From Patescibacteria group bacterium (GTDB lineage: Bacteria; Patescibacteriota; Patescibacteriia; Veblenbacterales; UBA10138), in NCBI GenBank assembly GCA_041645215.1, contig JBAZQK010000007.1, positions 8,976-72,975 on the forward strand: DNA of 64,000 bases. Reading direction: 5' to 3'. The notes below the pieces were generated by a model. It worked only from the letters and a program-made list of their open reading frames with translations. It had not been told where the DNA came from and searched no databases. Position numbers and translations under genes: made by a program. This document shows, in pieces, positions 14,761 through 64,000 of the stretch; the stretch's first letter is position 1, and each line of letters starts with the position of its first letter.

Positions 14761-15144
14761 TTAACTATTAAGCCAAAATAATAAAACCGTCTGCCCTAAA
14801 AACCCCAAACTAATAAGACAACTTAACCACAGCCAGACTTGTTTTAGTATAAGTGTTCGGCGTCCGACTGAATAAGCCAGCGCCACATTAATCAAGGCAA
14901 AACCGGTGGCGGTCAGCGGTAATAATATTAACGACAAATTATTTTCCACCCAGTTCGGCCCCAAGGCCACCGAATAACGTATAACACTGAAGTTATCGCG
15001 GCTTGGCCAATTATAAAGTACTAGCCACCAATTAGCCGCCAAAATAATGATATTTAAACCAATAGCGCCAGTAATGCCGGGTTGCCGCCAAAAGGCTCGC
15101 CAGGTTTCACGACGCCATTGCCAAAAATAATTAAATGACCACAT
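14761..15144 (-). CDS. Small membrane protein, hypothetical
   Basis: The 127-aa product has 3-4 predicted TM segments and is tightly linked downstream of mraY's start. Confidence 0.45.
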   Translation of the reverse strand: MWSFNYFWQWRRETWRAFWRQPGITGAIGLNIIILAANWWLVLYNWPSRDNFSVIRYSVALGPNWVENNLSLILLPLTATGFALINVALAYSVGRRTLILKQVWLWLSCLISLGFLGQTVLLFWLNS

Positions 15145-15280
15145 AAACTATATTAATTGTAGTTGAAAGGGGGGGGTTTAGGCAAACTAAATAGTCTAAT
15201 TAAATTGTTAAACCGGACAATCTTTGATATACTCAAGTCAAGCTGGGCGCCAAATTAAAATGGCTCGGCCAAGTGAAACT

Positions 15281-15460
15281 CCATCCTCCTTGGCGGATAG
15301 CATCTTCATGTTCTGCGGCGCCCGTCCTCCGTCCTCCCAAGGAGGACTACGGAGGATGGAGAACCCGTTAAAGCCTATCCTCCTTGCCTACTGAAACCAT
15401 AGTCCCGATGTACAAAAAGGACGAGGGCCGGGCGTTCACCTTCTTGAGGACGGTAGCAGG
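15281..15460. repeat. P-family palindromic repeat element (core GTCCTCC-N-GGAGGAC)
   Basis: Core gtcctcccaaggaggac at 15331-15347. It shares 25 nt (cggcgcccgtcctccgtcctcc) with 53210-53235. The 21-mer gtcccgatgtacaaaaaggac is the reverse complement of 20484-20504. Confidence 0.65.
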
Positions 15461-15490: not shown

Positions 15491-17224
15491 ATGCTAAACC
15501 AGGATTATGTAACCAAAATAGCTTTAGACAACAAAATAATCAGTCCGGTTGATCTAAAAAAAATAAAGGCTGAACTCAAAAGCGGTGATTTGAATCTGGA
15601 AGATTATTTGATAAAAGAGCGCTTAACGACGGATGAGGCGCTGTACATGTTGCTGGCCAAACGGTTTGATTTGCCGTTTGTTGATCTTAAAAATGTCACA
15701 ATCCGCAAAGACATCCTGCTGGCAATACCGGAGCCGATTGCCCAAACCCACCAAATTGTGGCTTTTGATAAAGATGACAAGTCAATCAAAATTGCCACCA
15801 CTGATCCGGATGATTTGCAGACTTTTGAATTTATTGAAAAAAAATTTGGCCTGAAGGCGGAAATTCACCTTACCAGCCCAACTGCCATCCGCGAGGTTCT
15901 TAAACAATACCATAAAAGTTTAAGAGCTGAATTCGCCGAAATAACCAAAGATGATAAAACCGCCGATCCGGCCCGCGCCGGCAATGATTTGCAAAAATTA
16001 GCAGAGGATTTGCCGATTGTCCGAATTGTCGACACCCTGCTGGAATACGCCATATTTGAACGCGCTTCCGATATCCACATTGAACCAACCGAAGCCGAGG
16101 TTATTGTCCGCTATCGGGTTGACGGCGTGCTGCGCGACGTGATGACTCTCCCCAAAGCCGTACAACCCGGTTTAACCGCCCGCATTAAAATTTTGTCTAA
16201 TTTAAAACTGGACGAACATCGCCTCCCCCAGGACGGTCGTTTTAAAATTAAAACTAAGGAGTACGAATTTTCTTTCCGGGTATCAATTATCCCGGTGTTT
16301 GATGGTGAAAAAATCGTTATGCGCCTGTTGCAGGAATCAGGCCAAGTTCTAACCCTGGAACAACTAGGTTTTCAAAAAAGTGTTTTGCTTAAAGTCAAAC
16401 GCAACATTAGTAAACCGCACGGCATGATTTTGGTTACCGGTCCCACCGGCAGCGGTAAAACCACTACACTCTACTCCGTTCTGAATGTGCTCAACACGCC
16501 CGAGGTTAATATTTCAACGGTGGAAGATCCAATAGAATACCGCATGCCGCGTATTAACCAAAGCCAGGTTTCACCGCGCACCGGCTTTACTTTTGCCGCC
16601 GGCTTGCGCGCCTTGTTGCGGCAAGACCCCAATATTATTATGGTCGGTGAAATTCGCGACATGGAAACAGCCGAAATTGCCATCCACGCCGCCATGACCG
16701 GTCATTTGGTGTTATCTACCCTGCACACTAACGACGCGGTTGGGACCTTGCCGCGCCTGTTGGATATGGGGGTAGCGCCATTCTTGGTGTCATCAACCGT
16801 CAACGTTATTGTCGGCCAGCGTTTAGTGCGCAAAATCTGCCAAAATTGCATTGTTTCCTACAAACTGACTGGTAAAAATATTGAGGACATTGACAGCCAA
16901 CTCAACCTAAAAGAATTAATGGCTGATTTAGCGAAAGAAGGCGCGGTCGCCTCGATTAACCAAAAAATTGAGAGTATGTTATTTTACCGCGGCAAAGGCT
17001 GTAAGCAATGTAATCAGGAAGGGTATCGCGGACGAATCGGCATTTATGAAATTTTTGAAGTTGACCCGGAAGTGGCTAATTTAATTTTAAACCGCGCGCC
17101 CTCGCAAGAGCTGTTCAAGGCGGCTCGCAAACAAGGTATGATAACCATGTTTGAAGACGGCTTTATCAAGGCTAAAGCCGGCATTACCACCATTGAGGAA
17201 GTGCTGCGGGTAACGCGTGAATAA
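15491..17224 (+). CDS. pilB: Type IV pilus assembly ATPase PilB / GspE family
   Basis: An N-terminal GSPII-like domain is present. Walker A 'VTGPTGSGKTTTL', 'DPIEY', and a tetracysteine 'CQNC...CKQC' are present. Confidence 0.93.
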   Translation: MLNQDYVTKIALDNKIISPVDLKKIKAELKSGDLNLEDYLIKERLTTDEALYMLLAKRFDLPFVDLKNVTIRKDILLAIPEPIAQTHQIVAFDKDDKSIKIATTDPDDLQTFEFIEKKFGLKAEIHLTSPTAIREVLKQYHKSLRAEFAEITKDDKTADPARAGNDLQKLAEDLPIVRIVDTLLEYAIFERASDIHIEPTEAEVIVRYRVDGVLRDVMTLPKAVQPGLTARIKILSNLKLDEHRLPQDGRFKIKTKEYEFSFRVSIIPVFDGEKIVMRLLQESGQVLTLEQLGFQKSVLLKVKRNISKPHGMILVTGPTGSGKTTTLYSVLNVLNTPEVNISTVEDPIEYRMPRINQSQVSPRTGFTFAAGLRALLRQDPNIIMVGEIRDMETAEIAIHAAMTGHLVLSTLHTNDAVGTLPRLLDMGVAPFLVSSTVNVIVGQRLVRKICQNCIVSYKLTGKNIEDIDSQLNLKELMADLAKEGAVASINQKIESMLFYRGKGCKQCNQEGYRGRIGIYEIFEVDPEVANLILNRAPSQELFKAARKQGMITMFEDGFIKAKAGITTIEEVLRVTRE

Positions 17225-18440: not shown

Positions 18441-18605
18441 AGGACTTACGCGTTTGAGCCAAGTTCGAGGCAAAACCGAGCATTTGAGCGAGCCGTAGTA
18501 AAACTACGGTGAACGAAAAGCGGAGGTTTTAACGAAGAAATTGGCCAAAGCCGCTTGAGGGGTCGTCCCTGCGCCAGCCCGGCAAGCGGCAAGCGCGTAA
18601 GTCCT
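18441..18605 (+). mobile_element. X-family MITE-like element copy X1 (TIR aggacttacgcg / cgcgtaagtcct)
   Basis: A 165-bp element. Its reverse complement recurs at 26209-26371 at about 90% identity. Central hairpin ccgtagtaaaactacgg. Confidence 0.75.
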
Positions 18606-20432: not shown

Positions 20433-20597
20433 AACTCGGGAGCTGTAGTCCCACCATTGGCGGGGCGGGATATTATGGCGAAGTCCTTTTTGTACATCGG
20501 GACGAAAAAGGATAAAATCCGCCGTCGTCCAGATGTACAAAAGGGAGGGTATTGACAGCGGAGCCGGAGCTAAGCGGGACCCCAGAAGAATAAAACT
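20433..20597. repeat. P-family-related mosaic repeat in the pilin-pilin spacer
   Basis: Contains gtcctttttgtacatcgggac, the reverse complement of 15403-15423, and atccgccgtcgtcc, similar to 28300-28340. Confidence 0.5.
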
Positions 20598-24210: not shown

Positions 24211-24240
24211 ATATATGCCCAGTAATACAACTTGGCTAGC

Positions 24241-24626
24241 GCTCGCCCAGTACCAGAGCAAGCACGGTACCGGGCATCACCACTGGAATGTATTGCTAAC
24301 CATCAATGAACGGCAGTATGTCAGAACTTTCATATCTAGCTTATGATTTTAGCGCTCGCCCAGCACCAGAGCCCCGAAGGAGAACAAGTTCCCTACGGGG
24401 CAGGCAAGCACGGTACTCTCGCATCGCTCCAACGGTATATTCCTCATCGGCAGCGAGCGGCCAACAATCCCAATCTTTTGACTATTCTTGGTGCCCAGGG
24501 CTCGCCCAGTACCAGAGCAAGCACGGTACCGGGCATCGCCACTGGAGTACATTGTTTACCGGCAGTGGACGGCAGTAATGTCAATACTCCCATATATAGC
24601 TCTTGGTTCTTGGGCTCGCTTCAACC
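24241..24626. repeat. Tandem array of about 3.3 degenerate 113-146-bp units (T-family) between pilM and pilN
   Basis: Units begin at 24241, 24354 and 24500, each starting gctcgcccag[t/c]accagag, with a truncated start at 24614. The middle unit is nearly identical to 27696-27844. Confidence 0.8.
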
Positions 24627-26208: not shown

Positions 26209-26371
26209 TAGGCTTACGCGCTTGCCGCTTGCAGGGCGGGCAAAGCCCGACCCTCAAGCGGCTTTGGCCAATTTCTTTGTTAAAACCTCCGCTTTTCGCT
26301 CACCGTAGTTTTACTACGGCTCGCTCAAATGCTCGGTTTTGCCTCGAACTTGGTTCAAACCCGTAAGCCTA
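26209..26371 (-). mobile_element. X-family MITE-like element copy X2, inverted relative to X1
   Basis: taggcttacgcg...cgtaagccta. It is the reverse complement of 18441-18605 and abuts the stop codon of the 25840-26208 ORF. Confidence 0.75.
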
Positions 26372-27403: not shown

Positions 27404-27462
27404 AAATACATAATAATGGCAAAACCCGCCCTTGACTAGGTTATTATTATTAATTATACTTA

Positions 27463-27637
27463 GAGATGGTTCCAAAACTCTTTCGTGGCGAAATTTCAGT
27501 TTTTCTTGCGAGACGAGGAAGGCGAGCAAAAAGAATTGAAACGTAGTAGAACTACGGTGAAATCCTTTTTGCGAAGCCTGACGAAGTCGCAGCCGAAAAG
27601 ATGAAATTACAGCAGAAATGAGTTTTGAAACCATCTC
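27463..27637 (+). mobile_element. Y-family MITE-like element copy Y1 (TIR gagatggttccaaaactc / gagttttgaaaccatctc)
   Basis: 175 bp. Its reverse complement recurs at 60048-60222. The central hairpin cgtagtagaactacggtgaa is shared with the X family. Confidence 0.75.
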
Positions 27638-27695
27638 TTAGTCTCGCTTTCATAATTCTCAATTCTTGCCCAGTATAACTACTTATGTTATAGTT

Positions 27696-27844
27696 CGCCC
27701 AGTACCAGAGTCCCGAAGGAGAACAAGTTCCCTACGGGGCAGGCAAGCACGGTACTCTCGCATCGCTCCAACGGTATATTCCTCATCGGCAGCGAGCGGC
27801 CAACAATCCCAATCTTTTGACTATTCTTGGTGCCCAGGGCTCGC
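27696..27844. repeat. Solo copy of the T-family middle unit
   Basis: About 147 nt, identical to 24354-24499 except for 2 C/T transitions. Confidence 0.8.
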
Positions 27845-28262: not shown

Positions 28263-28360
28263 TTATGAAGCCTCCACGGGCTTACGCCCGAGGTATCCTT
28301 CATTTTTTCGGCGAAATCCGCCGAAGTCCTCCCAAGGAGGACGAAGGCGGATAAAATTCA
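28263..28360. repeat. P-family palindromic repeat element
   Basis: Core gtcctcccaaggaggac at 28326-28342, flanked by atccgccgaag / cgaaggcggat. Confidence 0.6.
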
Positions 28361-28392
28361 AAAATCCGCTCCTATCCCAGAGCGGATTTTTT
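28361..28392. terminator. Bidirectional rho-independent terminator between convergent rpmA and pyrG
   Basis: aaaatccgctc ctatccca gagcggatttt with T/A runs on both sides. Confidence 0.7.
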
Positions 28393-30078: not shown

Positions 30079-30220
30079 ACCCAGTATATCAACTTGGCTT
30101 AACCACCTCAGCACGAGCGTGGTTAGACAAGAATAAATGATTAAATGATTTTAGAAAAGACATAAAGTTATAATAGCTGGTGGTTAGGGCGAGTGCTAGC
30201 CAAGTTGTATTACTGGGCAT
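30079..30220 (+). mobile_element. W-family MITE-like element copy W1 (TIR acccagtatatcaacttggc / gccaagttgtattactgggcat)
   Basis: A 142-bp element that starts directly at the pyrG start codon. Its termini recur at 30221/30472, 47465/47610 and 24217-24242. Confidence 0.75.
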
Positions 30221-30472
30221 ACCCAGTATATCAACCCCGTAGAATCACGGCGGATACATCGATCAACCGTAATGTCCGGATTAATTGTAAGTAATTTGCG
30301 ATTTTCATAAATATTGATTGTCCGCCGTAACTCTACGGGGTCAACTTGGCTTAACCACCTCAGCACGAGCGTGGTTAGACAAGAATAAATGATTAAATGA
30401 TTTTAGAAAAGACATAAAGTTATAATAGCTGGTGGTTAGGGCGAGTGCTAGCCAAGTTGTATTACTGGGCAT
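30221..30472 (+). mobile_element. W-family copy W2, interrupted by nested element V
   Basis: Same termini and internal sequence as W1 (aaccacctcagcacgagcgtggttagacaag...). A 105-bp insertion lies after position 15. Confidence 0.75.
30236..30340. mobile_element. Nested 105-bp V element with TIR cccgtagaatcacggcgg / ccgccgtaactctacggg, flanked by the 5-bp direct repeat 'tcaac'
   Basis: W2 reads ...tatatcaac[V]tcaacttggc..., while the uninterrupted W1 reads tatatcaacttggc. That leaves a clean 5-bp target-site duplication. Confidence 0.7.
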
Positions 30473-30482
30473 AATAAAAAAA

Positions 30483-30929
30483 TCAACTGGCTTTAATATT
30501 TATCAATAAATTAACGGCTAGATCGCGATGCAACTGGATAGCAATAGTATGACGGCCGACGGTTTTTAAAGGCGCTGTTAATAAAATAGATTTTGGTTGC
30601 GCTTTAAATTGTTTTTTAGCCAGCGCGGCCGCGATATCGGCGCGAGTCACACTGGCATACAGCTTGCCCGAATCAGCCGCGCGGGCGTTTATTTCAATTT
30701 CCCCCATGCCTAACAGTACCGCCGCCGCCGACTGGGCTTGTTTTAAGCTATCAACCGCCAATTTAGCCGGCGTGGCGGCCTGGATTTTAATATTGGCAAG
30801 CGCTTTAGCTGTCGCCGGAATTGCCTCCCGACGCGGCAACAGATAGTTAATGGCATAACCATCACTAACTTCCTTAACCTCATTAGTATAGCCGTTACCC
30901 GGTATAGCCTTTAATAATATAACTTTCAT
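30483..30929 (-). CDS. rplI: 50S ribosomal protein L9
   Basis: 'MKVILLKAIPGNGYTNEVKEVSDGYAINYLLP' is typical of L9. Confidence 0.9.
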   Translation of the reverse strand: MKVILLKAIPGNGYTNEVKEVSDGYAINYLLPRREAIPATAKALANIKIQAATPAKLAVDSLKQAQSAAAVLLGMGEIEINARAADSGKLYASVTRADIAAALAKKQFKAQPKSILLTAPLKTVGRHTIAIQLHRDLAVNLLINIKAS

Positions 30930-41624: not shown

Positions 41625-42128
41625 CTATGCTGTACTCTGTAAAAAATAATTATCCTTAAATTCATCCCAACTTGTTTCTCTGCCCGGGTAAGCCACGCTA
41701 TCAAACGGCCATTTCTCCTTAATCCAATTTTTAACAGTGATAAATAAATATTTATCTAGCCCATTTGCCAATTCATCCTTTCTTACCCAAGCAATAACTA
41801 CTACGTCATATTTTACATTTGTGCTGGGCATAATGTACACGCAGCCCAAACATCTTGTTTCATCGAGGTTCATGACGGTGTAAGTAAAGGACGTTCGTTT
41901 TTGAAACTCCTCCTGATGAAAACGGAGGTCGTTTAAATCCTGCTCAAGAGTTAAATCTTTCTGCGGCCAGCGGTCAAAAGGCCCAAATACGCACTGAAGA
42001 TGTTCCAAACTTGTGATGACGGCTTCATAATCTTTCGTAAGGTCATCAATGGTAAGCATTCTCAACCGTATTCTGTCTGTTTCTAATTTTTTAGGAACTT
42101 GAAAACTATCTGGGATGAACTTTTTCAT
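41625..42128 (-). CDS. GNAT-family N-acetyltransferase
   Basis: 167 aa. 'RIRLRMLTIDDL' N-terminus and RimL-like architecture. Confidence 0.55.
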   Translation of the reverse strand: MKKFIPDSFQVPKKLETDRIRLRMLTIDDLTKDYEAVITSLEHLQCVFGPFDRWPQKDLTLEQDLNDLRFHQEEFQKRTSFTYTVMNLDETRCLGCVYIMPSTNVKYDVVVIAWVRKDELANGLDKYLFITVKNWIKEKWPFDSVAYPGRETSWDEFKDNYFLQSTA

Positions 42129-43040: not shown

Positions 43041-43541
43041 TCAACCAAAAGCCTTTTGTTCCTCTTTTAATACAATATCATGCGCTTCATGTAAAGAAAA
43101 ACTTTGGTCTCGTAGATTAGCCTCCAATATTTCATGGAACAGAATTCTTCTTCTGTCCGATTCAGGTATTGTGTCATGTAGATAAATATCATAACCTCTG
43201 ACGTATGTAGATGCGAAATATTCTGCTGATTTACCAAATTTAGCCAGTTTTCCTTCAGCTTCAGCTTTTGCCAATCTACCTGCTTTAGTAATGTTTATAT
43301 AGAATTCTGTTCCATTGAACGTAAATCTGTACCCTTGTTCCCATTTGATGCTGTCTAGTAGAGCCAAAAGTTCTTCCGTTTTTAGTTCTGGTTGTCGAAT
43401 TATTTCTCGGTTTTCCATAAATTTAGAAAAGTAATTTTTTAAATGAATTTCGTCTAACTCGTTTTTATGCGACGTGTTTGGTGAATAATATACGCATTGT
43501 TGTATATTATGCGAAATTGTAATATTATCGACCCATATCAC
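43041..43541 (-). CDS. Hypothetical protein
   Basis: ORF in the low-GC island with no recognised domain. A 'HEILE...HEAHD' motif is noted. Confidence 0.35.
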   Translation of the reverse strand: MIWVDNITISHNIQQCVYYSPNTSHKNELDEIHLKNYFSKFMENREIIRQPELKTEELLALLDSIKWEQGYRFTFNGTEFYINITKAGRLAKAEAEGKLAKFGKSAEYFASTYVRGYDIYLHDTIPESDRRRILFHEILEANLRDQSFSLHEAHDIVLKEEQKAFG

Positions 43542-43818: not shown

Positions 43819-44169
43819 TTACTCAATTATTCTACCTCCAGTTTGTTCTATCATTTCTCTTAACGCCTGCATCATTTTTTCTTTATCATCAGAACCTTTA
43901 TTTAGAATTTTGCTAGGTCCATGAATAACATAGCGATCAAAATTACGTAGATCATCTGAAATTTGAGCTATCTTATAGATTGTACCATCTTCTATAATAG
44001 TAACTACATCTCCATTTATATTTTTAAATCCGTTGGCAGTCTTGCGAAAAGAGATTTTAGCTAATTCAGAAACTTCCTTGGAAAGTTTTTCTAACTCCGC
44101 AAAACTTAGTTTAGCAACTTCAATTTTTTTTGGATTCTCTGGTTGATCGGCTGATGATAATTCATGCAT
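43819..44169 (-). CDS. Hypothetical protein
   Basis: ORF in the low-GC island with no recognised domain. Confidence 0.35.
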   Translation of the reverse strand: MHELSSADQPENPKKIEVAKLSFAELEKLSKEVSELAKISFRKTANGFKNINGDVVTIIEDGTIYKIAQISDDLRNFDRYVIHGPSKILNKGSDDKEKMMQALREMIEQTGGRIIE

Positions 44170-49355: not shown

Positions 49356-51665
49356 TTGACTGCTGTCTTAATGGTCGCGGCCAAATCAGCAAAAAGTGCT
49401 ACAATAAATTATATGCCAACTACTTTATTAGCCAGCCTGCTCGGTTTAATACTAAGCCTAAACCTGTGGCTGGTGCATTCCCTTATTCTTGGCTTACTGG
49501 TCGGGTTCGCGTATTTATGGCTAACCGGCACACTCTGGAGCGAACGATTAAAACTAAATAGCTGGTTGGAAAAGTTTGTTATCGGTAGTATCAGTTTAAT
49601 GGCCGCTGTCATAATTATCAGCACCATTGGTTTTTATATTGGCCTATTTAATAAATACCTCATCGGCCTACTATTGGTAGCCTTACCTTTGGCTGGCCAA
49701 TTTAAACAAGTCAAATTTACCCTCCTCCGCAAGCGACAGCGAGCGGAGAATGATCAGCCTGTAAAAGCGGGAATGAATGAGGATATCCTCCGTAGCCTTG
49801 GCGAAGAAGGATATGCTGCGGAGGGTTCTGCCCGACGAAACATGGTGAGAGGTGCCACGAGCAGCCTACTCCGTCCTCCTAAGGAGGACGGAGTAGGCTG
49901 GGTAAGCCTGTGGAACTCAACTTTGGCCGCCGCCTTAGCCATTACCTGGCAAAAAATACTCACACTGACGCTCTTTATCATTTTAGCCGGCTTAACCAGT
50001 TACAGCCTTTACTATGTGTTAAGCAATGAAGCCCTGCGCACACCCTGGCAGGTTGTGTTGCCAATAACTTTCGCACTTTATGCCGGCGCCGTCGCCGCTT
50101 GGCTAATAGTCAGCCGCTATTTCAAAGCCGGCGGCCTAATATTACTTTATTTGATAAGTTCAAGTGTATTGCCGCTAGTCTACGCTTTGGGTTATGGCTT
50201 TGACCCGTTTATTCACCAAGCCACGGCTAAAATTTTAGCTAACACCGGCACCATTGACCCTAAACCCTTATATTACATTGGCCAGTACGTAATCGTGGTA
50301 ATAATCAACTGGGTCACGGCTCTGCCTATTAACCTCATAGATAAATGGCTGTTGCCGATTTTAACCAGTTTGATTCTGCCTGTGCTCACGGTACGAAAAC
50401 TAAAACAGACCGCCACGGATAATTATCTACTGGTACTGGCTGGAGCCTTGCCATTAATTTTTTTGCTCAGTCAATTCACTTACACCACCCCGCAGGGTTT
50501 AGCTAATTTATTAGCCTTAGTTCTAATTTTTACTTGGTTTAAAAATAATGACGGCGTTCACCTGCCTATTTGGTTTAGCTGGCTAGTGGCGCTAGCTGGC
50601 GTGGCCGTTCATCCCCTGACAGGACTGCCTCTGCTGGGATTAAATACCATTTGGCAAATATACCAAAGCAATCTTAAACTAAATATCAAAAAATGGCTGC
50701 TGGGTTTGGCGGCCACGGCCACGGCCTTAGTGGTACCGCTCGGATTCGCGGTGATGTCCTGGCTCAAACCGTCAGCCGCCAGTATTAAATTATCATTTGA
50801 CTGGTGGAATAGTTTGGCGCGCCTTGGTAGCAATCTGGCTGGAGCTTTGCCGATTTTACCGCCCTATACTGAAGTGGCTGACGTGGTTTATTTATGGGGC
50901 CGGCCGTTGGTTTTAATAATTGTGGCGTTAGCGGCTTGGGGCTGGTACCGCACTAGCAAATACCGCTTGGGCGCCGGATTTTTAATCACCAGCTTTGGCT
51001 TGCTGACTTTGAGTTATTTGCTTTTAAATTTATTTGCCAAATTTCCTAATCTGCCGACCAATGAGCAGAATTTTTATGCGGCGCGTTTATGGGAGTTGGC
51101 TTTGTTCACACTCTGGCCGTTGGCGCTCTATGGCGGATATCAAATTATCCATTATGTTTGGTACGAACGGCGCGCGCCTTATTTAGTGAGTGTAAGTTTA
51201 GTGTTAATATTAACAGCCTCATTTTACCTGACTTACCCCAGGCTGGATGTTTATCATCGCGATACCGGCTACAACACCACGCCCGATGATGTGCAAGCCG
51301 TAAAACTGATAAATAATGTTGGCGCCAATGGCAATTATGCCGTGCTCGCCAATCAGGCGGTCGCCGCCGCCGCCATCAAGACGTACAGTTTCAACAAATA
51401 CTTTGGACAAAATTTTTACTACCCCCTGCCGACCGGAACTAATCCATTGTACCAGGTCTATTTGAACGCGGCCGAGCGCGGATTGCCGACGCGTGCGACC
51501 ATTAAAACCGCGGCTGATATCACCGGCGCGCCGCAAATTTTTTTGGTTTTGAATAAATACTGGGCAAACTTTGACAAACTTACCGTCGTCGCCGACAGCG
51601 CCGCCAACCAAAAATGGCTGGTAGGCGACGGCCGTATTGCCATTTACCGCTACGATTTTAAATAA
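49356..51665 (+). CDS. Large polytopic membrane protein (possible GT-C-like or polymerase). The likely start is Met20 at 49413.
   Basis: About 14 TM segments. It contains an in-frame P-family repeat encoding a hydrophilic loop (49740-49905). Confidence 0.5.
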   Translation: MTAVLMVAAKSAKSATINYMPTTLLASLLGLILSLNLWLVHSLILGLLVGFAYLWLTGTLWSERLKLNSWLEKFVIGSISLMAAVIIISTIGFYIGLFNKYLIGLLLVALPLAGQFKQVKFTLLRKRQRAENDQPVKAGMNEDILRSLGEEGYAAEGSARRNMVRGATSSLLRPPKEDGVGWVSLWNSTLAAALAITWQKILTLTLFIILAGLTSYSLYYVLSNEALRTPWQVVLPITFALYAGAVAAWLIVSRYFKAGGLILLYLISSSVLPLVYALGYGFDPFIHQATAKILANTGTIDPKPLYYIGQYVIVVIINWVTALPINLIDKWLLPILTSLILPVLTVRKLKQTATDNYLLVLAGALPLIFLLSQFTYTTPQGLANLLALVLIFTWFKNNDGVHLPIWFSWLVALAGVAVHPLTGLPLLGLNTIWQIYQSNLKLNIKKWLLGLAATATALVVPLGFAVMSWLKPSAASIKLSFDWWNSLARLGSNLAGALPILPPYTEVADVVYLWGRPLVLIIVALAAWGWYRTSKYRLGAGFLITSFGLLTLSYLLLNLFAKFPNLPTNEQNFYAARLWELALFTLWPLALYGGYQIIHYVWYERRAPYLVSVSLVLILTASFYLTYPRLDVYHRDTGYNTTPDDVQAVKLINNVGANGNYAVLANQAVAAAAIKTYSFNKYFGQNFYYPLPTGTNPLYQVYLNAAERGLPTRATIKTAADITGAPQIFLVLNKYWANFDKLTVVADSAANQKWLVGDGRIAIYRYDFK
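49740..49905. repeat. P-family palindromic element inserted in-frame in a CDS
   Basis: The perfect 33-nt palindrome cctactccgtcctcctaaggaggacggagtagg lies at 49865-49897. It encodes '...RGATSSLLRPPKEDGVGW...'. Confidence 0.6.
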
Positions 51666-52173: not shown

Positions 52174-52220
52174 TTTTTACTCCTTGGCATTAAGTTTGAT
52201 TTTGGTTTTCTTATTATTTT

Positions 52221-52351
52221 TAGGACTTACGCACTTGACCGTTTTTGGGTGTCATTCCCGTGCCAACGGGAATCCAGGCTGTGTAGAATGGCCATATTCT
52301 GGATCCCCGCATACGCGAGGATGACAGAAAGAGACCAAGTGCGTAAGTCCT
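52221..52351. mobile_element. X-family short copy X3 (TIR aggacttacgcacttg / caagtgcgtaagtcct)
   Basis: 131 bp. Perfect 16-nt TIRs with internal nested dyads. Confidence 0.65.
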
Positions 52352-52420
52352 AACTTTATTAAATACTTCAATACCATTTTCAAAAAACCACTTTCACCAG
52401 GCGGACGGATGAAGCTTAAG

Positions 52421-53713
52421 TCAAGAGCTCAATCGAGCTAACAAACTTGTAAGTTCGCGCGCGTAATCAGCCAAATTACTGGCTGAACTATTTTGTTTGG
52501 TATGACTGGCGGCGGCCGCCAATAAACTTGGGTTATCCAAACACCTATTAAGTTTTTGCGTAAACTCGGCCTCACTGCCGGGCGTGAACATCCAACCATT
52601 AACCCCCTCCTCCATAAGTTCCGGAATTCCGCCGCTTTGTGAGGCCAGCACCGGCGTACCCTGAACTTTAGCCATGGTAATAATGGTGGGCGCGTTTTCT
52701 AAACACAATGACGGTACGATTGCCAGGTGACTGTCGGCAATATAATTGTCAATTTCGGCTTGCGTGACAGTACGGTTAAGGGCAAAACGTTTATCGTCAC
52801 CAATCAAATTAACCAGCCGGGCCCAATTGTCCAGCGCGCCGACCGCTACAATTCGCAATGACCAATCACTCCGTGAACTTTTTTTAAGTGTTTGCACCAA
52901 CCAAAATATACCCTTATGCTCTTGAATCTGCCCGACGTATATCAAATTAACCAGACCCAGCGGCTTAAAGACCGATAGCGGGGCGGCCAGTGGCGGAACC
53001 GGATTGGGTATTACCTTAATTTCACTATTTTTAAAAAATCCCCGACTAATGTGTTCAGCCATCAGCCAACGCGATGGCGCCACCACAATATTTACCGGCT
53101 GGAATAACCAACGGGTAATAAACTGATAAACCTTAACGATTAAATTTTCATAACTCTCCTCAACCTGAAGCTTCCACGGGCTCATCCCGCCGTCTATGGT
53201 ATATTTCATTTCGGCGGCGCCCGTCCTCCGTCCTCCTTGGGAGGACGAGGGTGGATAAAATAAACCCGAGGGGTGTAGCAGTTGGACATCGTGCAAGGTG
53301 TGAAGATGTTTAAGCGACAGCGACTTAATGGCGCGCGGCAACCAAAACGACAAGCCCATCAAGTTAAAACTAATCACCGCCGCCGGCTTAACTTTTGCCA
53401 AAATTCGCCTGACCTGCCCCGCCGCCAGCCAATTAAACAAATTTATTTTATGCCAAACTAATCGCCACCCTAAACCATGGCGGGCGGCGTTAAGGTAATA
53501 ATAAACATTCAGCGGATAAAACCGATAAACCGCTATTTTATGCTCAATTCGGCAATCAGTTTTAAAACTACGCAAAGCCTGCCAGGGCGCGCTGGTAATA
53601 ACCGACACCTCATGTCCTTGATTAATCAATTCGACCGCTAACTGACTGGCGATGTATTCGGCGCCGCCGCGCCCGAACGGCGGATAAAGATTGGAAATTA
53701 TCGTGATTTTCAT
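52421..53713 (-). CDS. Glycosyltransferase family 4, with an in-frame repeat insertion
   Basis: GT4 C-terminal 'ASQSGGIPELMEEGVNG'. P-family core at 53230-53246 encodes 'PPSSSQGGRRTGAAE'. Confidence 0.82.
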   Translation of the reverse strand: MKITIISNLYPPFGRGGAEYIASQLAVELINQGHEVSVITSAPWQALRSFKTDCRIEHKIAVYRFYPLNVYYYLNAARHGLGWRLVWHKINLFNWLAAGQVRRILAKVKPAAVISFNLMGLSFWLPRAIKSLSLKHLHTLHDVQLLHPSGLFYPPSSSQGGRRTGAAEMKYTIDGGMSPWKLQVEESYENLIVKVYQFITRWLFQPVNIVVAPSRWLMAEHISRGFFKNSEIKVIPNPVPPLAAPLSVFKPLGLVNLIYVGQIQEHKGIFWLVQTLKKSSRSDWSLRIVAVGALDNWARLVNLIGDDKRFALNRTVTQAEIDNYIADSHLAIVPSLCLENAPTIITMAKVQGTPVLASQSGGIPELMEEGVNGWMFTPGSEAEFTQKLNRCLDNPSLLAAAASHTKQNSSASNLADYARELTSLLARLSS

Positions 53714-54834
53714 AGCAAACCTCGGTATAAATCATCAAGCTCTTGTCCCAACTTATCCCATTGGTAATTTTGCCGCGCGCGCTGGGCGCCGTTTTGTCCT
53801 AAGTGGCGCGCTTTATCAGGATTATTCAGTAAAATATCAATTGCCGCGGCCAAACTGTCAGCGCTGCCCGCCACTGCCAATAATCCATTTTGCCCGTCCT
53901 TGATTAATTCCCGCACGCCGGGCAAACGCGAGGCAATTACCGGCAGGCCCGTTGCCATGGCTTGTAAAGCCGCCAAACCAAAGGCTTCGGCTTGGCTGGT
54001 GGAGGGAAACAAAAATATATCAGCCGCCTGGTAATAAAGCGGTAATTCCCGATCCTTAACAAACCCGACAAAATTCACTCTGGGGGCCAAACCTAATTTC
54101 TGCGCCATGGCGGCGTAATGAGTTTTTAACTTACCGGCGCCCACTACCATTAAACGCCACGGATATTTTTTTAATTTAACTAAACTGGCTAACAACACGC
54201 CTAAACCCTTAAAAGCATGGGCCTGGTCAAGCGTACCGACAAACAACAAAACCGTTTCCTCACGCTTAATGTTGTACTGCTGACGAACCACTGATGGCTC
54301 AAACGCCGGTGTAAACCTGGCCTCAACCCCAAACGGCATCACCCGCCACTTGCCAGTCTCACCTAACAACGGCCAACCGACCTCCCTCATATAATCTTGG
54401 GTAGCGCATAAAATAGCATCGGCCCGGCGCGCCAACGCCCGCGCCGTCAGCTTGGTATCAAGCAGAAAAACTTTATCTTTCAACCCGCCGCCGCGCGCCG
54501 TCATATGAAATGTCATAACTAATTTTTGCTTAGGCGACAGCTTAGCTAACCATTCGTGAACGCCAAAAAAAGGATAATGCAAATGCACAATATCAAAATC
54601 TTTTAAACGCCCCAAAATAGTGGGGTTAAAAGCGGCCTTGCCAATGCTAACCCACGGCTTAAATGGCGCAACTTTAACGCCCGGCAGTTGCGCAAAGGTT
54701 AAACCTTTATTATAAAGCGGAGTTAAAACCGTTACTTCGTGTGGCGACGCCAACAAACGGGCGTAATGATAAGCCACATAACCAATGCCGCCGCCGTAGG
54801 GCGGATATACGCATGTCAGCTGACAAATTTTCAT
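53710..54834 (-). CDS. Glycosyltransferase family 4
   Basis: 'FPSTSQAEAFGLAALQAMATGLPVIASR' matches the EX7E region. Confidence 0.85.
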   Translation of the reverse strand: MKICQLTCVYPPYGGGIGYVAYHYARLLASPHEVTVLTPLYNKGLTFAQLPGVKVAPFKPWVSIGKAAFNPTILGRLKDFDIVHLHYPFFGVHEWLAKLSPKQKLVMTFHMTARGGGLKDKVFLLDTKLTARALARRADAILCATQDYMREVGWPLLGETGKWRVMPFGVEARFTPAFEPSVVRQQYNIKREETVLLFVGTLDQAHAFKGLGVLLASLVKLKKYPWRLMVVGAGKLKTHYAAMAQKLGLAPRVNFVGFVKDRELPLYYQAADIFLFPSTSQAEAFGLAALQAMATGLPVIASRLPGVRELIKDGQNGLLAVAGSADSLAAAIDILLNNPDKARHLGQNGAQRARQNYQWDKLGQELDDLYRGLL

Positions 54835-54838
54835 AATC

Positions 54839-55888
54839 TTACCATCTTATAATGGGAAAAATTATTCGCCAACCGCTGGCGCTTAGATAATTAAAAACTT
54901 TCATAAACAAACTTTCTTCTTGCCATTGTAGTTCACCGGCCGCCCAGCGCAGCAAATCGCGATCTTTAAGAGCCGTCAGCTTTTTTAAGGCTGAGCGTTT
55001 GTTAATTATATAGTTTCTGGCGGCGGGACGAAATAAATATTCCAGCGCTCTAATTTTGGCCCCCAGCCAACCGCCGCGCCCGGCCCCCAATATTATTGCC
55101 AACTCCGCCGCCGCGGCGGGCAAAAACAACAGCGCCAAAGTCGCGGGTTTAAAATAACTAAGCCACACCAAATAACGGTTGCGCTCCATAAAATACATTT
55201 GTGTCTTACTGCGCCGCGGCTCATAATAATGGGTAACCGCGGTTTGTCTGGTAATACCCAGTTTCCAACCGGCCGCGCGCAACCGCAAACTCAACTCCAA
55301 ATCTTCGTGATACATAAATAAATCTTCGTCAAATAAGCCCGTCTGGCGCAACGCCGCCGCGCGCAGTAAAACCGCGGCGCCGGAAAAATACGGCGGTTCC
55401 GGATTAGTGTTGTGGCCGTAAAATTTTTGCCAAGCCGCGTCTAAATCCTGCCCATTGCCCACAGCCTCGCCCAAACCCAAATAATGAAAGGAATTGCCAA
55501 TGCTGTTTACCAAACCGTTCGGCAGCAGTATAACCGGCTGGACCGCCGCCGCTTTGGAATTTTGTTGTAAATACTCAACTAATCCAGCTAAGGCGCCGGC
55601 GGTAAGTTCGGCGTCTTGATTTAACAAAAAAATATACTCGGCGCCGTCAGCCAGCGCGCGCTTAATGCCAATATTATTGCCGCGGGCAAAACCAAAATTT
55701 TCACCCTGACGGATTAACTTAACAGTCGGATATTCCAACTTTATAAGTTCCGCCGTATTATCACGGGAATTATTATCCACCGCGTAAACCGGCACGCCAG
55801 CGGCGTACTTAGCGCACGACCCTAAACTAACCGCCAACCAACGTTTGGCGTTATAGGTAACAACAACAATGGCGGTTTGGTTCAACAT
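54839..55888 (-). CDS. Glycosyltransferase family 2
   Basis: 'VVVTYN...DNNSRDNT' (DxD) and 'FLLNQDAEL' are present. Confidence 0.8.
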   Translation of the reverse strand: MLNQTAIVVVTYNAKRWLAVSLGSCAKYAAGVPVYAVDNNSRDNTAELIKLEYPTVKLIRQGENFGFARGNNIGIKRALADGAEYIFLLNQDAELTAGALAGLVEYLQQNSKAAAVQPVILLPNGLVNSIGNSFHYLGLGEAVGNGQDLDAAWQKFYGHNTNPEPPYFSGAAVLLRAAALRQTGLFDEDLFMYHEDLELSLRLRAAGWKLGITRQTAVTHYYEPRRSKTQMYFMERNRYLVWLSYFKPATLALLFLPAAAAELAIILGAGRGGWLGAKIRALEYLFRPAARNYIINKRSALKKLTALKDRDLLRWAAGELQWQEESLFMKVFNYLSASGWRIIFPIIRW

Positions 55889-60033: not shown

Positions 60034-60047
60034 AGTTATGTTACTCT

Positions 60048-60222
60048 GAGATGGTTTCAAAACTCATTTCTGCTGTAATTTCATCTTTTCGGCTGCGACT
60101 TCGTCAGGCTTCGCAAAAAGGATTTCACCGTAATTATACTACGTTTCAATTCTTTTTGCTCGCCTTCCTCGTCTCGCGAGAAAAACTGAAATTTCGCCAC
60201 GAAAGAGTTTTGGAACCATCTC
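60048..60222 (-). mobile_element. Y-family copy Y2 (inverted relative to Y1)
   Basis: Reverse complement of 27463-27637. Confidence 0.75.
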
Positions 60223-60260
60223 TCTAAGTTTAATGTAGCAATAATCTAATTTTAACTGAT

Positions 60261-60762: not shown

Positions 60763-63027
60763 TTAACGGGCTGTACCAACGGTTAAACCGCCCCGCCAAT
60801 TTTTGGGTTCAATAAAAAAACTTGACATAACTTGATTCTGACCATTAAACACTCGCACTTGCGGTCCGCCGCCCACGCCGGGGGTGGCCACTATTTCGCG
60901 GCTGCCATTACCATCGGTATCACCCACCGCCACGTTCACGCCGCCCCGGAAATTTTTAGCAAAGGCAAAAAACTGACGCAGAACGCGACCCTGATAATTA
61001 AACACTCGCACTTGCGGTCCGCCGCCGGCTCCGGGAGCAACTACTATTTCCGCCTTGCCGTCGCCATCGGTATCACCCACCGCCACGTTCACGCCGCCCG
61101 GGAAAGCCCAGGAAAAAGCGTAAAACTCGCTCCTTTTATTACCAAACTTGTCAAATACGCGAATCGGCAAACGCAAATTACCCGCGGGCGCGGTTACTAT
61201 TTCCGGCTGGCCGTCGCCGTCAGTATCGCCCACCGCCACGTTCACACCGCCAATATAAGACGGGTCGTACGGTATGAACTGGTACAGAATATTTCCCGCT
61301 TCATCATAAATTCTAACTAAATTAGAGCCGCCTTTGCCAACCCCAATTACAATCTCGTCTTTTTTATCAGCTGTAAAATCCGCCACCGCCACGCTCAAAC
61401 CACCCCGAAACTGTTCGGGCAAGGCCATAAATTGCGATTCCAACCCGCCTTTTAAATTAAAAATTTTGACATGCGGACCGCCGCCGGCCCGCGGCACAGT
61501 GACAACGTCAATTTGCCCGTCGCCATCCACATCACCGGCCGCCACATTAATGCCTTTGGTATAGCGCGCGTCATAGGCCAAAAACTTTTGCATTAATTCA
61601 CTGGATAAATCGTACAGCGCTATTTCCGCCGTGGCGTTAGTCTGCGGCGCTAAAAAAATCGGCGTCTTGCGGCTAAAGACTTTACTGCCGGCCAGCGCAA
61701 AGGCTTTTTGCAAATTCAGCCGGCGTCCCAACTGCCCCACCTGTCCCGGATTGGCATTGTCAACTAAATCGCCCGCGGCAATTAACACATCGCGCAGTTG
61801 TGACGGCGATAAATTGGGATAGGCTGATTTTAACAAGGCCAGCGAACCTGACACTAACGGCGCCGCCACTGATGTGCCCGACCAATAACCGCCATAATAA
61901 TCCTGAAACAAATTGTTGGCTTTATCAACAAACTGGGTACTATAAATTTTTACGCCCGGCGCCGCCAAATCAATGCACTTGGAACCAAAATTGGAAAACT
62001 CGGCTCGCACGTCGTTATCATCCACCGCCGCCACGCCAATCACCTGATTTTCACCATTAAACCCGTCACTACAAACCGGATAGTGCGGCTGCTTGTTCAT
62101 ATCTACGCCCATTTGCTGTTCATTACCCGCCGCCGCCACCACCAAAATGCCGGCCTGATAAGCGCGCTGAATCGCATCTTCCAAAATTGGGTCGGAAAAC
62201 TGACCGACAAAACTCAAATTGATAATATCGGCATGGTTAGCAATTGCGTACTGAATGCCGCGCGCTACCGTTACCGTGTCGCCCAAGCCACGGCCGTCCA
62301 ACACCCGAATGGGCATAAGGCGGGCATGCCAAGCCAGGCCCGCCACGCCTTGAACATTATTGCCGATGGCCGCGGCCACGCCGGCCACAATCGTGCCGTG
62401 GTTCATCGCCACCTCATTCCAACCGGCGTCAAACTTTGGTTCAGGGTCGGCCACATTGGCCACAAAATCCCAACCGTTCAGGTCGTCAATATAGCCGTTT
62501 TTATCATTGTCTTGTTTGTCGTTCGGCACCTCCCACGGATTAAACCAAATATTGCTGGCCAAATCCGGATTGCTGACATCGACGCCAGTATCAAGCACGG
62601 CGATTACGGAACGAATGGTTTGACTTTGCGGAACATCCCACGCCGCCGGGGCTTTAATCTTATCATAATAATTTTTTTGGAAATTGTAATCCAAATCATT
62701 TGGAATCAGGGCTAAACTGTACTGACGCACGGGCGCGACTAACTTAATGCCCGTCTGCTTGTTTAAATAAGCCTGCGCGGTTTGGGAGTTTAGCCGCTCG
62801 GAACAGCGATAACGCACAATTTGTGATGATGTCGTTACTGCCGCCAAATCGCACGGCGCCGCTACTTTAACCACCGCATCATTAACCACCGCGCCAGTAA
62901 TTTCCGCCGCCGGCAGCTTAGTAAATCCATTGTCAGCCCCATTAACGTTAGCTCCATTAACCAAAAACCCGAGCGCAACTGCCGGGACCACAAGCCAAAT
63001 AATTGTTCTGACTGGTCGTGAATTCAT
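60763..63027 (-). CDS. Secreted subtilisin-like (S8) serine protease fused to a C-terminal FG-GAP/VCBS repeat beta-propeller. The likely start is 'MNSRPVRTIIWLVV'.
   Basis: S8 triad context 'AVLDTGVD', 'HGTIVAGVAAA', 'GTSVAAPLVSG'. Then about 6-7 repeats 'GDTDGDG(Q/K)(P/A)EIV' and 'FRGGVNVAVGD'. Confidence 0.85.
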   Translation of the reverse strand: MNSRPVRTIIWLVVPAVALGFLVNGANVNGADNGFTKLPAAEITGAVVNDAVVKVAAPCDLAAVTTSSQIVRYRCSERLNSQTAQAYLNKQTGIKLVAPVRQYSLALIPNDLDYNFQKNYYDKIKAPAAWDVPQSQTIRSVIAVLDTGVDVSNPDLASNIWFNPWEVPNDKQDNDKNGYIDDLNGWDFVANVADPEPKFDAGWNEVAMNHGTIVAGVAAAIGNNVQGVAGLAWHARLMPIRVLDGRGLGDTVTVARGIQYAIANHADIINLSFVGQFSDPILEDAIQRAYQAGILVVAAAGNEQQMGVDMNKQPHYPVCSDGFNGENQVIGVAAVDDNDVRAEFSNFGSKCIDLAAPGVKIYSTQFVDKANNLFQDYYGGYWSGTSVAAPLVSGSLALLKSAYPNLSPSQLRDVLIAAGDLVDNANPGQVGQLGRRLNLQKAFALAGSKVFSRKTPIFLAPQTNATAEIALYDLSSELMQKFLAYDARYTKGINVAAGDVDGDGQIDVVTVPRAGGGPHVKIFNLKGGLESQFMALPEQFRGGLSVAVADFTADKKDEIVIGVGKGGSNLVRIYDEAGNILYQFIPYDPSYIGGVNVAVGDTDGDGQPEIVTAPAGNLRLPIRVFDKFGNKRSEFYAFSWAFPGGVNVAVGDTDGDGKAEIVVAPGAGGGPQVRVFNYQGRVLRQFFAFAKNFRGGVNVAVGDTDGNGSREIVATPGVGGGPQVRVFNGQNQVMSSFFIEPKNWRGGLTVGTAR

Positions 63028-63168
63028 TAATACTATTATGACAAAAAATCGCTCATAAGGGAAGAGGTTATTCATTTAGCGATGATAATAATTTTATCAA
63101 AATCGCCGCCGCCACATCTTAAAAAAATAAGACCAAACAAAAAACAATTAAATTTTAAAACACCCGAC

Positions 63169-63241
63169 AAATACTTTGATACTGGGAAGCGAAGTCCCGC
63201 ACCGCCCGACTTGGTCGGACTGGTGCGTGGGTATGGAAGTT
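63169..63241. promoter_or_regulatory. Operator-like repeat copy in the protease promoter region, interrupted by a hairpin
   Basis: aaatactttgatactgggaag[39-nt hairpin insert]gtatggaagtt, compared with uninterrupted copies at 63836-63868 and 63934-63966. Confidence 0.45.
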
Positions 63242-63262
63242 TTTGACTAAAAGGTAAGATTA

Positions 63263-63796
63263 TCAATTTTTTAATAATTTAGCCAAGTCTTTATTCAGCT
63301 TACCTTTAATTTGTAATTTACTTAAAGTCTGATAAAGTCGCTTTTTTTGTTGCTGGTTGGCCAAGGCGATAATCTCTTTAATTAAAATCTCCGGCCAAAA
63401 ATACATAGGATACGAGCGGCGTATTTTGACCCACGGTGAATAATAATTTTCGCTATTACTTTTATCTTCATTACTAATATCTTTGTTCTTAGTGCGTTCA
63501 AATACGGCCCGAAAACCATCCCCCGCCTCTTGCAACCAAATATTTATTCGGGCTATAGTTTGGCTACTGACTTTTAAAGTTCGGGTGATATCTTGATAAT
63601 TTTTACCTTGCAACAATAGTTTGGCTATTTTAAGACGCTTAGCCAACATCGTTAGCTCGGAACGCGACAACAAATCCTGAAAAATCATTGCCACATCCTT
63701 AAAACCATGTATGGTCCCCAAAGAACGAAAAAAATCAAGCAACAAATCTTGCTCTTCTTTTTTAGATAAGCGGGCTTGAGGTGAAAATTTGGCCAT
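63263..63796 (-). CDS. TrpR-like (YerC/YecD family) DNA-binding protein with a C-terminal extension. The track start is 63880; the likely start is 'MAKFSPQARL'.
   Basis: 'SRSELTMLAKRLKIAKLLLQGKNYQDITRTLKVSSQTIARINIWL' is an HTH of the Trp-repressor type. Confidence 0.6.
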   Translation of the reverse strand: MAKFSPQARLSKKEEQDLLLDFFRSLGTIHGFKDVAMIFQDLLSRSELTMLAKRLKIAKLLLQGKNYQDITRTLKVSSQTIARINIWLQEAGDGFRAVFERTKNKDISNEDKSNSENYYSPWVKIRRSYPMYFWPEILIKEIIALANQQQKKRLYQTLSKLQIKGKLNKDLAKLLKN

Positions 63797-63835
63797 AGTT
63801 TTTTTATATAATTTATTAGCAATTTTATTATACAC

Positions 63836-63868
63836 CAATACTTTGATACTGGGAAGTATGGAAGTATT
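63836..63868. promoter_or_regulatory. Operator-like repeat copy upstream of the TrpR-like gene
   Basis: caatactttgatactgggaagtatggaagtatt, with an internal dyad atactt...aagtat. A second copy lies at 63934-63966. Confidence 0.45.
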
Positions 63869-64000
63869 TTTTGAAGACAAAAAAAGACCACTGAATATTT
63901 AGCAAATACAAAAAGTGGTATTAAGCCTCAGTAAAATACTTTGATACTGGGAAGTATGGAAGTATTATTCAAATACAAAAAGAGCTCTCAAGAGGACTGT

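Follow-up and report, generated by a model that had tools for sequence, protein, structure and literature searches.

The Rickettsia palindromic elements (RPEs) are repeats of 100-150 bp that are abundant in both intergenic and coding regions (PMC1779305), and nearly half of them occur as in-frame fusions (PMC10969869). In-frame insertions of the miniature inverted-repeat transposable element (MITE) type are likewise known within open reading frames (ORFs), as exemplified by intragenic ERIC sequences, the MITEs of Anabaena and QMITE1 of Coxiella (PMC10969869). Here we describe a comparable case in a 64,000-nt stretch of DNA from a Patescibacteria group bacterium (contig JBAZQK010000007.1; hereafter, the window). 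A gene for a glycosyltransferase of family GT4 contains c53, which we consider to be one copy of a hairpin-forming repeat of ~90 nt dispersed in a Kerfeldbacteria lineage (Patescibacteria, or Candidate Phyla Radiation, CPR). Our reading, to which we assign a probability of about 0.8, is that c53 is a tolerated palindromic repeat in a loop of the enzyme, analogous to the RPEs. The class is meant here as a functional one, judged by behaviour and not by sequence homology.

A preliminary description of this locus had reported a string of 25 nt common to the GT4 gene and to an intergenic element at 15316-15347. An exact match does exist (Table 1), although it is 23 nt long and the similarity is not limited to a string of that size. 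The segment had been placed at 53205-53265; the extra block seen at codon level instead comprises 31 codons whose limits are also those of the repeat (CTGAAG...GGATA), making it 93 nt long and not about 40. A covariance model of the repeat family matched c53 along model positions 1-92, with a span of 53165-53260 (79.7 bits, E=3e-21). Thus, c53 is an intact full-length copy, for which the earlier term 'footprint', in the sense of an excision remnant, is the wrong word; 'P element' is apt for a palindromic repeat but not if taken to mean the Drosophila transposon. The minus-strand translation given for the site, ...YPPSSSQGGRRTGAAEMKY... / ...LFYPPSSSQGGRRTGAAEMKYTIDGG... inside ORF 52421-53713, was correct. 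The element reads forward on the plus strand and the gene lies on the minus strand, so that the GT4 mRNA contains the reverse complement of the element; c53 encodes GT4 residues 153-183, YPPSSSQGGRRTGAAEMKYTIDGGMSPWKLQ. At 93 nt, and with no stop codon in the frame in which it is read, the insert preserves the reading frame and would be translated.

We assessed the lineage specificity of the insert in an alignment of 24 GT4 sequences. The 31-residue block YPPSSSQGGRRTGAAEMKYTIDGGMSPWKLQ(V) was found only in the query and in P0001, a protein 98% identical to it. At the same position 21 of the 23 homologues have nothing, and the remaining one (P0010) has an unrelated insert of 21 residues. Orthologues from the sister species (L019-L021) are 397 aa long and lack the insert in a syntenic setting, and the covariance model, R1, detected no copy of the repeat in the 41 kb of these loci. 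The suggestion that the segment is a lineage-specific insertion was therefore borne out, and no conservation of it in distant GT4 homologues was seen. The borders of c53 were drawn from codon and protein alignment only, and not from a DNA-level empty site, because the orthologues are only 55% identical.

The same insert is present at the same position, with 4 nt differences, in ENA assembly ERZ27247322 (L001) and in a contig of JGI metagenome 3300028028 (L002), which represent a strain 98.6% identical to the window over 6.6 kb. Since it is found in three independent assemblies, it is not an assembly artefact. Nor does coincidence explain it: dinucleotide-preserving shuffling (100 shuffles) yielded 0.00 matches even with up to 3 mismatches allowed, as the preliminary description had anticipated in judging the match unlikely by chance. 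A chance or low-complexity resemblance, or a chimeric assembly, is consequently barely credible, the CCTCC-rich composition being all that speaks for it against the shuffles, a homology of ~90 nt and the three assemblies.

P0010 is the GT4 orthologue of a GC-rich relative, and its 21-residue insert, SGSGKQAAVSRTGALRAALVRR (L003 5172-5249), lies at exactly the loop occupied by c53. We rejected it as a related element on the grounds that it is GC-rich, is unrelated in sequence, has no second copy in its contig and folds only weakly (z = -1.9). It indicates that the loop tolerates insertions and is a hotspot of length change, not that the two inserts have a common origin.

The membership of c53 in a repeat family is evident within the window itself. 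Four occurrences of the core hairpin GTCCTCC-NNN-GGAGGAC were counted (15331, 28326, 49873 and 53230) against an expectation of 0.02. Model R1, built from 11 short copies, found nothing significant in the window beyond c28, c53, c15 and c49, the last being a second genic copy considered below. The intergenic copy c15 lies between ORF 14761-15144 on the minus strand and a pilB-like ATPase gene starting at 15491 on the plus strand, and is also present in JGI contig L016 from a near-identical strain. The c15/c53 subfamily is distinguished by a right-hairpin outer stem that duplicates GTCCTCC. The other intergenic copy, c28, starts 3 nt past the stop codon of rpmA (L27, 27977-28261), just upstream of a bidirectional terminator at 28360-28391. 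It has in common with c53 the left end TGAAGCYTCCACGGGCT, which recurs at 28266, together with a TTCATTT block, TTCGGCG and the right end GGATAAA.

Beyond the window, 185,579 species-representative genomes (596 Gb) were scanned with the 20-base pattern GTCCTCCNNNGGAGGACNNNGGNGGAT, which gave 11 loci, all in one metagenome-assembled genome (MAG), Candidatus Kerfeldbacteria JACRFM01 from groundwater; the only other match was a single, unrelated and chance-looking one in an Opitutus bin. Three loci were obtained from JGI metagenomes, one of which (L016) is the window's own c15 region. The JACRFM01 loci hold at least 15 further copies, comprising 12 with the core hairpin and 3 added by the covariance model. 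One of the MAG copies, on the reverse strand at about 5195-5280 of L011, is situated ~60 nt downstream of an apparent tRNA 3' end (GGTTCGATTCTCGCACGGCCCACCA).

With the copies placed in a common orientation, the family consensus is ATGAAGCCTCCACGGGCTCACGCCCGAGGTAGCCTTCATTTCTTCGGCGAAATCCGCCGAAGTCCTCCTTGGGAGGACGAAGGCGGATAAA. It forms three hairpins: H1 (TGAAG..CTTCA enclosing CCTC/GAGG and GGGC/GCCC), H2 (TTCGGCG/CGCCGAA) and H3 (GTCCTCC/GGAGGAC). In an alternative fold H3 is extended by ATCCGCC/GGCGGAT, a pairing that is mutually exclusive with H2. As single-stranded DNA the element folds with z-scores of -3 to -6 on both strands (-3 to -8 across fold tests), the values for c53 being -3.1 on the plus and -4.2 on the minus strand. 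Across the alignment fitted to model R1, pairing is kept in 95% of helix cells, with double changes at 10 pairs. Helix mismatches comprise 13 G:T and 11 A:C, without strand bias; this even split fits a palindrome kept or decaying at the DNA level, not an RNA read from one strand. Copies occur in either orientation relative to neighbouring genes.

The family also includes long forms of ~135-150 nt among the fetched loci, in which the apex of H1 holds a further, nested hairpin (for example CCCGATGTACATCGGG), or the apex of H3 is replaced by other modules. These nested and swapped apices show the family to be modular. A further hairpin module, GTCCCGATGTACA(TCGGGAC / AAAAAGGAC), adjoins or nests in copies of the main element (window 15397-15421, L006, L007, L008 and L014). 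The same GTCCCGATGTACA module stands alone at 20480-20546 with a GGATAAAATCCGCC fragment, an organisation that is mosaic and resembles that of bacterial interspersed mosaic elements (BIMEs).

The strength of these structures raises the possibility of a functional RNA motif (a 3' untranslated region (UTR) stabiliser, a processing site or a small RNA), whereby the copy in the GT4 mRNA would act on stability, on ribosome pausing through its GGAGGA core, which resembles a Shine-Dalgarno (SD) sequence, or on RNase processing, with the peptide as a by-product. Such a role would account for a strong and conserved structure (z = -3 to -8), for the position of c28 between the rpmA stop and a terminator, for the several forward MAG copies that are followed by hairpins, for the mutually exclusive pairings of H2 and extended H3, and for a core that pairs SD-like GGAGGA with anti-SD-like TCCTCC. 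However, copies are found in both orientations relative to genes, the two genic ones being opposite to each other; the mismatches have no strand bias; the apical modules are freely swapped or nested; and the element is neither terminator-like nor promoter-like and has no Rfam match above about half of the gathering score. We consider an RNA function unlikely.

Several known identities were sought and rejected. No Rfam family matched the 64-kb window at its gathering score, and a search of the c28 region by E-value gave only generic hairpin and terminator look-alikes at about half the gathering scores or less. An RNase P or SRP RNA fragment, considered for the intergenic copy, was dropped after this null result and in view of its multi-copy nature. 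ARAGORN found no tRNA or tmRNA in the window, and consensus scans for terminators and promoters did not call the element. A phage origin was also discarded: blastn gave no match in 50,697 phage records and the core pattern is absent from IMG/VR, where 15 matches to the left-end pattern are attributable to chance (0 of 15 fit the covariance model).

A six-frame comparison of the copies showed that stops and frameshifts vary among them and that the family has no conserved peptide frame. Forward copies (28265-28354; L004, L013) do contain a mini-ORF of 29 codons, MKPPRA(H/Y)ARG(I/S)LHFFGEIRRSPP(K/W)EDEGG*, which opens with an ATG at the first base and closes with a TAA at the end. We rejected a small peptide gene, as this ORF is intact in c28, L004 and L013 but interrupted by a stop or frameshift in L014, L005, L011 and the long forms, arguing that the element is not coding. 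The frame used in c53 combines two consensus frames: a 2-nt difference in a spacer, common to c15, shifts the frame past the consensus TGA codons. Additionally, a 3-nt bulge reads TAG, a stop, in c15 and TCG or ACG in c53 and L001. These differences may predate the insertion or may have been selected afterwards.

The host protein is a GT4 glycosyltransferase with a GT-B fold, Glycos_transf_1 and Glyco_transf_4 domains and a full set of invariant residues (58 of the 58 invariant family columns of the 24-sequence alignment are kept). Domains PF00534, PF13439, PF13579 and PF13692 are annotated on all of its homologues. AlphaFold2 (AF2), run on the 24-row alignment in which two rows contain the insert, returned a confident GT-B model with a predicted TM score (pTM) of 0.81; the per-residue confidence (pLDDT) fell below 50 only at residues 150-186, where no secondary structure was predicted. 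The closest solved folds identified by Foldseek are the retaining GT4 enzymes MshA, BshA and PimA (E about 1e-16) and sucrose-phosphate synthase. In the model the insert falls in the N-terminal Rossmann domain, between a strand at 135-139 and a helix at 179-188, in a segment of variable length among the homologues. The insert is accordingly predicted to be a floppy, disordered surface loop that fits the fold.

A substitution-pattern check, as the preliminary description had proposed, set the segment apart from the remainder of the gene. When the window is compared with L001, the 31 codons of the insert carry 3 non-synonymous and 1 synonymous differences (ratio of non-synonymous to synonymous polymorphism, pN/pS, 0.91), while the remaining 399 codons carry 6 of each (pN/pS 0.30). 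In nucleotides, 4 of 93 positions differ in the insert versus 12 of 1200 in the remainder (Fisher p=0.023). Small as they are, these counts agree with a functional enzyme bearing an unconstrained passenger loop: the insert would be evolving almost neutrally and the rest of the enzyme under purifying selection. The GT4 protein would be made with its loop and be active.

An adaptive role for the peptide, in which a Gly/Ser/Arg-rich loop of 31 residues provides the GT4 enzyme with a new interaction or regulatory surface, fits these data poorly. It could be argued from the fact that the insert is open and in frame in three assemblies, from the stop that c15 has and c53 lacks in the equivalent frame, and from the location of both genic insertions in cell-envelope glycan genes of one cluster. 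On the other side, pN/pS in the insert is about 0.9 and 98.6%-identical strains differ at 3 of its 31 residues, disorder is predicted, and the peptide is a translated repeat, non-coding in its other copies, which have stops or frameshifts in that frame. A disordered, length-variable and near-neutral loop on a constrained enzyme points to tolerated selfish DNA rather than a functional module, and we regard the adaptive role as quite improbable.

It is highly improbable that the segment is missing from the mature protein through an intron, an intein or translational bypassing of the kind known from T4 gene 60 and yeast mitochondrial byp. A stable hairpin within a coding region may recall bypass elements, but bypassing would be needless for a segment that is in frame and stop-free, and its borders (TTT|TAT ... 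CAG|GTT) have no matched take-off and landing codons. Furthermore, a self-splicing intron would be much larger than 93 nt and an intein much larger than 31 aa, intein residues are absent from the Y...Q/V junctions, and no Rfam intron family was found.

A second case of in-frame insertion, c49, is located 3 kb from c53 and is independent of it. It resides in gene 49356-51665, which encodes a membrane protein (750/769 aa) with no Pfam family, identical to NCBI WC621_04005; in orthologues P0122-P0124 (682 aa, 80-83% identity) the 67 residues are absent. The insert is composite. It contains an 18-bp perfect H3-type hairpin (49862-49900), to which the 24-bit covariance-model match is confined, and a further module, for which blastn gave a match to a family copy in L017. 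The segment as a whole folds with z = -6.8. Its borders were read from a DNA alignment by eye. Relative to the host gene c49 is forward and c53 reversed, and in c49 the TAA of the consensus element end is out of frame.

Table 1. Coordinates of the repeat copies and the GT4 gene in the window.
Feature	Position	Strand	Remarks
c53, full-length hairpin-repeat copy in GT4 gene	53165..53257	element forward on +; gene on -	93 nt, 31 codons
Stretch GCGGCGCCCGTCCTCCGTCCTCC, identical in c53 and c15	53214..53236 and 15315..15337	+	23 nt; marks c15/c53 subfamily
Core hairpin H3 of c53, GTCCTCC-TTG-GGAGGAC	53230..53246	+	
c49, composite in-frame insert in membrane-protein gene	49719..49919 (about)	+	201 nt, 67 codons
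c15, intergenic	15272..15361	+	covariance model 73.3 bits; closest relative of c53
c28, intergenic	28265..28356	+	covariance model 114.3 bits; near family consensus
GT4 (GT-B fold) glycosyltransferase gene	52421..53713	-	430 aa; 399 aa if insert removed; homologues 394-402 aa

We propose that a copy of a selfish, DNA-level palindromic repeat landed in a permissive, length-variable surface loop of the GT4 enzyme. The copy would be translated as an extra loop of 31 residues, the enzyme being otherwise kept under purifying selection, and such selection would act as a filter through which only in-frame, stop-free insertions in permissive loops survive. Spread as DNA would be consistent with palindromes kept on both strands and with the lack of a G:T versus A:C bias. 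Candidates for the moving agent are a trans-acting enzyme of the HUH/Y1 type that recognises single-stranded hairpins, or recombination between copies.

Several observations weigh against this explanation. The element has no terminal inverted repeats (TIRs), its ends ATGAAGCC... and ...GGCGGATAAA not being complementary, and neither a target-site duplication nor a conserved flanking target was found among the flanks of 15 copies. A Pfam scan of 50 window ORFs detected no transposase or integrase domain; these ORFs are housekeeping genes including the dcw/mur cluster, type IV pilus genes and genes for rhamnose and glycan synthesis. The remaining 10 large ORFs of the window (those of the GT4 cluster and some housekeeping genes), assessed by eye or through the Pfam annotation of homologues, include nothing transposase-like. 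No filled and empty versions of one site were found between close strains for the family of c53, only other repeat families being polymorphic. All 12 core-hairpin copies of JACRFM01 whose six frames were inspected are intergenic, so that in-frame insertion is the exception and the genic share in the window (2 of 4) may be local. Several intergenic copies (c28 and some in the MAG) lie just upstream of terminator-like hairpins, which would also fit an RNA role in the 3' UTR. Finally, the predicted disorder rests on an alignment with the insert in only 2 of 24 rows, and the substitution statistics are based on 16 differences only.

A bolder proposal is that the family represents a new, CPR-specific type of mobile element: a modular 'nesting-hairpin' element without TIRs or target duplications that adds hairpins at the apices of hairpins. 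Its spread could proceed through an RNA intermediate, or through a single-stranded DNA enzyme that recognises hairpins and whose gene lies elsewhere in the genome. We put this forward tentatively and consider it rather doubtful.

The setting of the GT4 gene was compared across strains and species. The protein has 482 relatives, of which P0001 is the best (430 aa, like the query); the others reach at most 53% identity by BLASTP and are typically 394-402 aa long. The sister-species loci L019, L020 and L021 are fully syntenic with the glycan cluster of the window, with the common order membrane protein, small ORF, GT4, GT4, GT2, DUF2304, GT2, epimerase, MetK, epimerase and GtrA. Divergence within this cluster is uneven. 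The GT4 protein of 52421-53713 is 55-56% identical to its sister-species orthologue and its neighbours are 62-82% identical to theirs (adjacent GT4 67-68%, GT2 62-63%, compared region 53710-55888; membrane protein of 49356-51665, 80-82%). On these identities the higher divergence of the GT4 gene is taken as that of a fast-evolving glycan gene, not of a pseudogene.

Other repeats were observed in the window. A MITE-like repeat of ~185 nt is present at 27458-27642 and 60043-60223, in inverted orientation and 97% identical, with TIRs of ~48 nt (ACTTAGAGATGGTTCCAAAAC...); at the site matching 60043-60223, strain L001 has a different element of ~255 nt. This difference indicates that at least these families have moved since the 98.6%-identical strains diverged. 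A small repeat family with ends TTAGGACTTACGC...GCGTAAGTCCTAA is represented at 52211-52362, at 18445-18561 / 26251-26367, at 7619, 26355 and 46555, and at 788-910 of L001; one copy occupies the spacer just past the GT4 stop codon, and one pair of 117 nt is 97% complementary. Repeats of 86-169 nt, 85-96% identical, pair 24337-24505 with 27676-27844 and 24233-24318 with 24492-24577, and form a tandem pair (30089-30235 with 30341-30487). They have in common a 35-nt inverted motif, TATGCCCAGTAATACAACTTGGCTAGCGCTCGCCC, and such a repeat load is unusual for a CPR genome.

Three further regions are recorded. The segment 40000-44000 is AT-rich (GC 0.34-0.38 versus about 0.45 elsewhere), contains three ORFs without a Pfam family (41625-42128, 43041-43541 and 43819-44169) and may be acquired DNA. 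At 63167-63984, three to four copies of AATACTTTGATACTGGGAAGTATGGAAGTATT are found in and around an ORF of 205 aa resembling Trp-repressor/HTH proteins (63263-63880), and may be operator-like repeats. A tandem periodicity of 153 nt at 60826-61434, within the subtilase/FG-GAP gene 60763-63075, corresponds to ordinary FG-GAP protein repeats.

Genomes of CPR/Patescibacteria are about 1 Mb in size and are usually called streamlined; the window nevertheless reveals several small-repeat families in one Kerfeldbacteria lineage, one of which would have been written twice into proteins of a cell-envelope glycan cluster. If correct, our explanation adds a second group with reduced genomes, unrelated to Rickettsia, in which selfish DNA has entered protein-coding genes, and favours the view that insertions of this kind persist where populations are small and selection is relaxed. 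It also carries a warning for annotation, namely that lineage-specific loops of CPR proteins can be repeat-derived and not functional. The element itself, with ~90 nt and three hairpins, offers a small and defined case in which to consider how repeats without inverted termini move. Were the 'nesting-hairpin' proposal true, it would imply that proteins are repeatedly remodelled in genomes otherwise regarded as streamlined and repeat-poor.

How, then, does the family of c53 relate to described elements? MITEs are defined by TIRs and target-site duplications. The present family is similarly small, non-autonomous, multi-copy and at times in frame within ORFs, but neither of the defining features was found in it. 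Repetitive extragenic palindromic (REP) sequences, BIMEs and REPINs are elements of Proteobacteria mobilised by RAYT, a Y1 transposase related to those of IS200/IS605, and REPs are by definition extragenic. Here too there are likenesses: both kinds are short imperfect palindromes without TIRs or target duplications, both form mosaics of hairpin modules, and both are often positioned at gene 3' ends near terminators. However, c49 and c53 are genic, at odds with an extragenic definition, the family of c53 has no conserved 5' GTAG-type tetranucleotide at the hairpin foot, and no gene for RAYT or a Y1 transposase was found among the window ORFs. A full-text search of the literature returned no paper linking CPR/Patescibacteria to MITEs or REPs in this sense. 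An in-frame hairpin repeat is known from the RPEs; we found no report of one for Kerfeldbacteria or the CPR group.

The RPEs remain the closest parallel. They differ in host (Alphaproteobacteria, versus Patescibacteria/Kerfeldbacteria here) and in that RPE families possess a conserved peptide-coding frame, whereas no peptide frame is common to the copies of c53's family. Furthermore, genic copies are a minority in the latter (2 of the ~20 copies seen), and it is modular, with extra hairpins nested at apices. The features in common are nonetheless extensive. The family of c53 is multi-copy and intergenic, palindromic with a stable hairpin, and has stop-free, in-frame copies (c53 and c49) that are absent from orthologues, the one in the GT4 gene being placed by AF2 prediction in a surface loop. 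Both it and the RPEs are interspersed, hairpin-forming repeats of ~100 nt in small, reduced genomes, no transposase being known for the RPEs and none having been found among the window ORFs for the family of c53, and both occur between genes as well as in frame within unrelated genes, where they would be translated as peptide segments compatible with the fold of the host protein.

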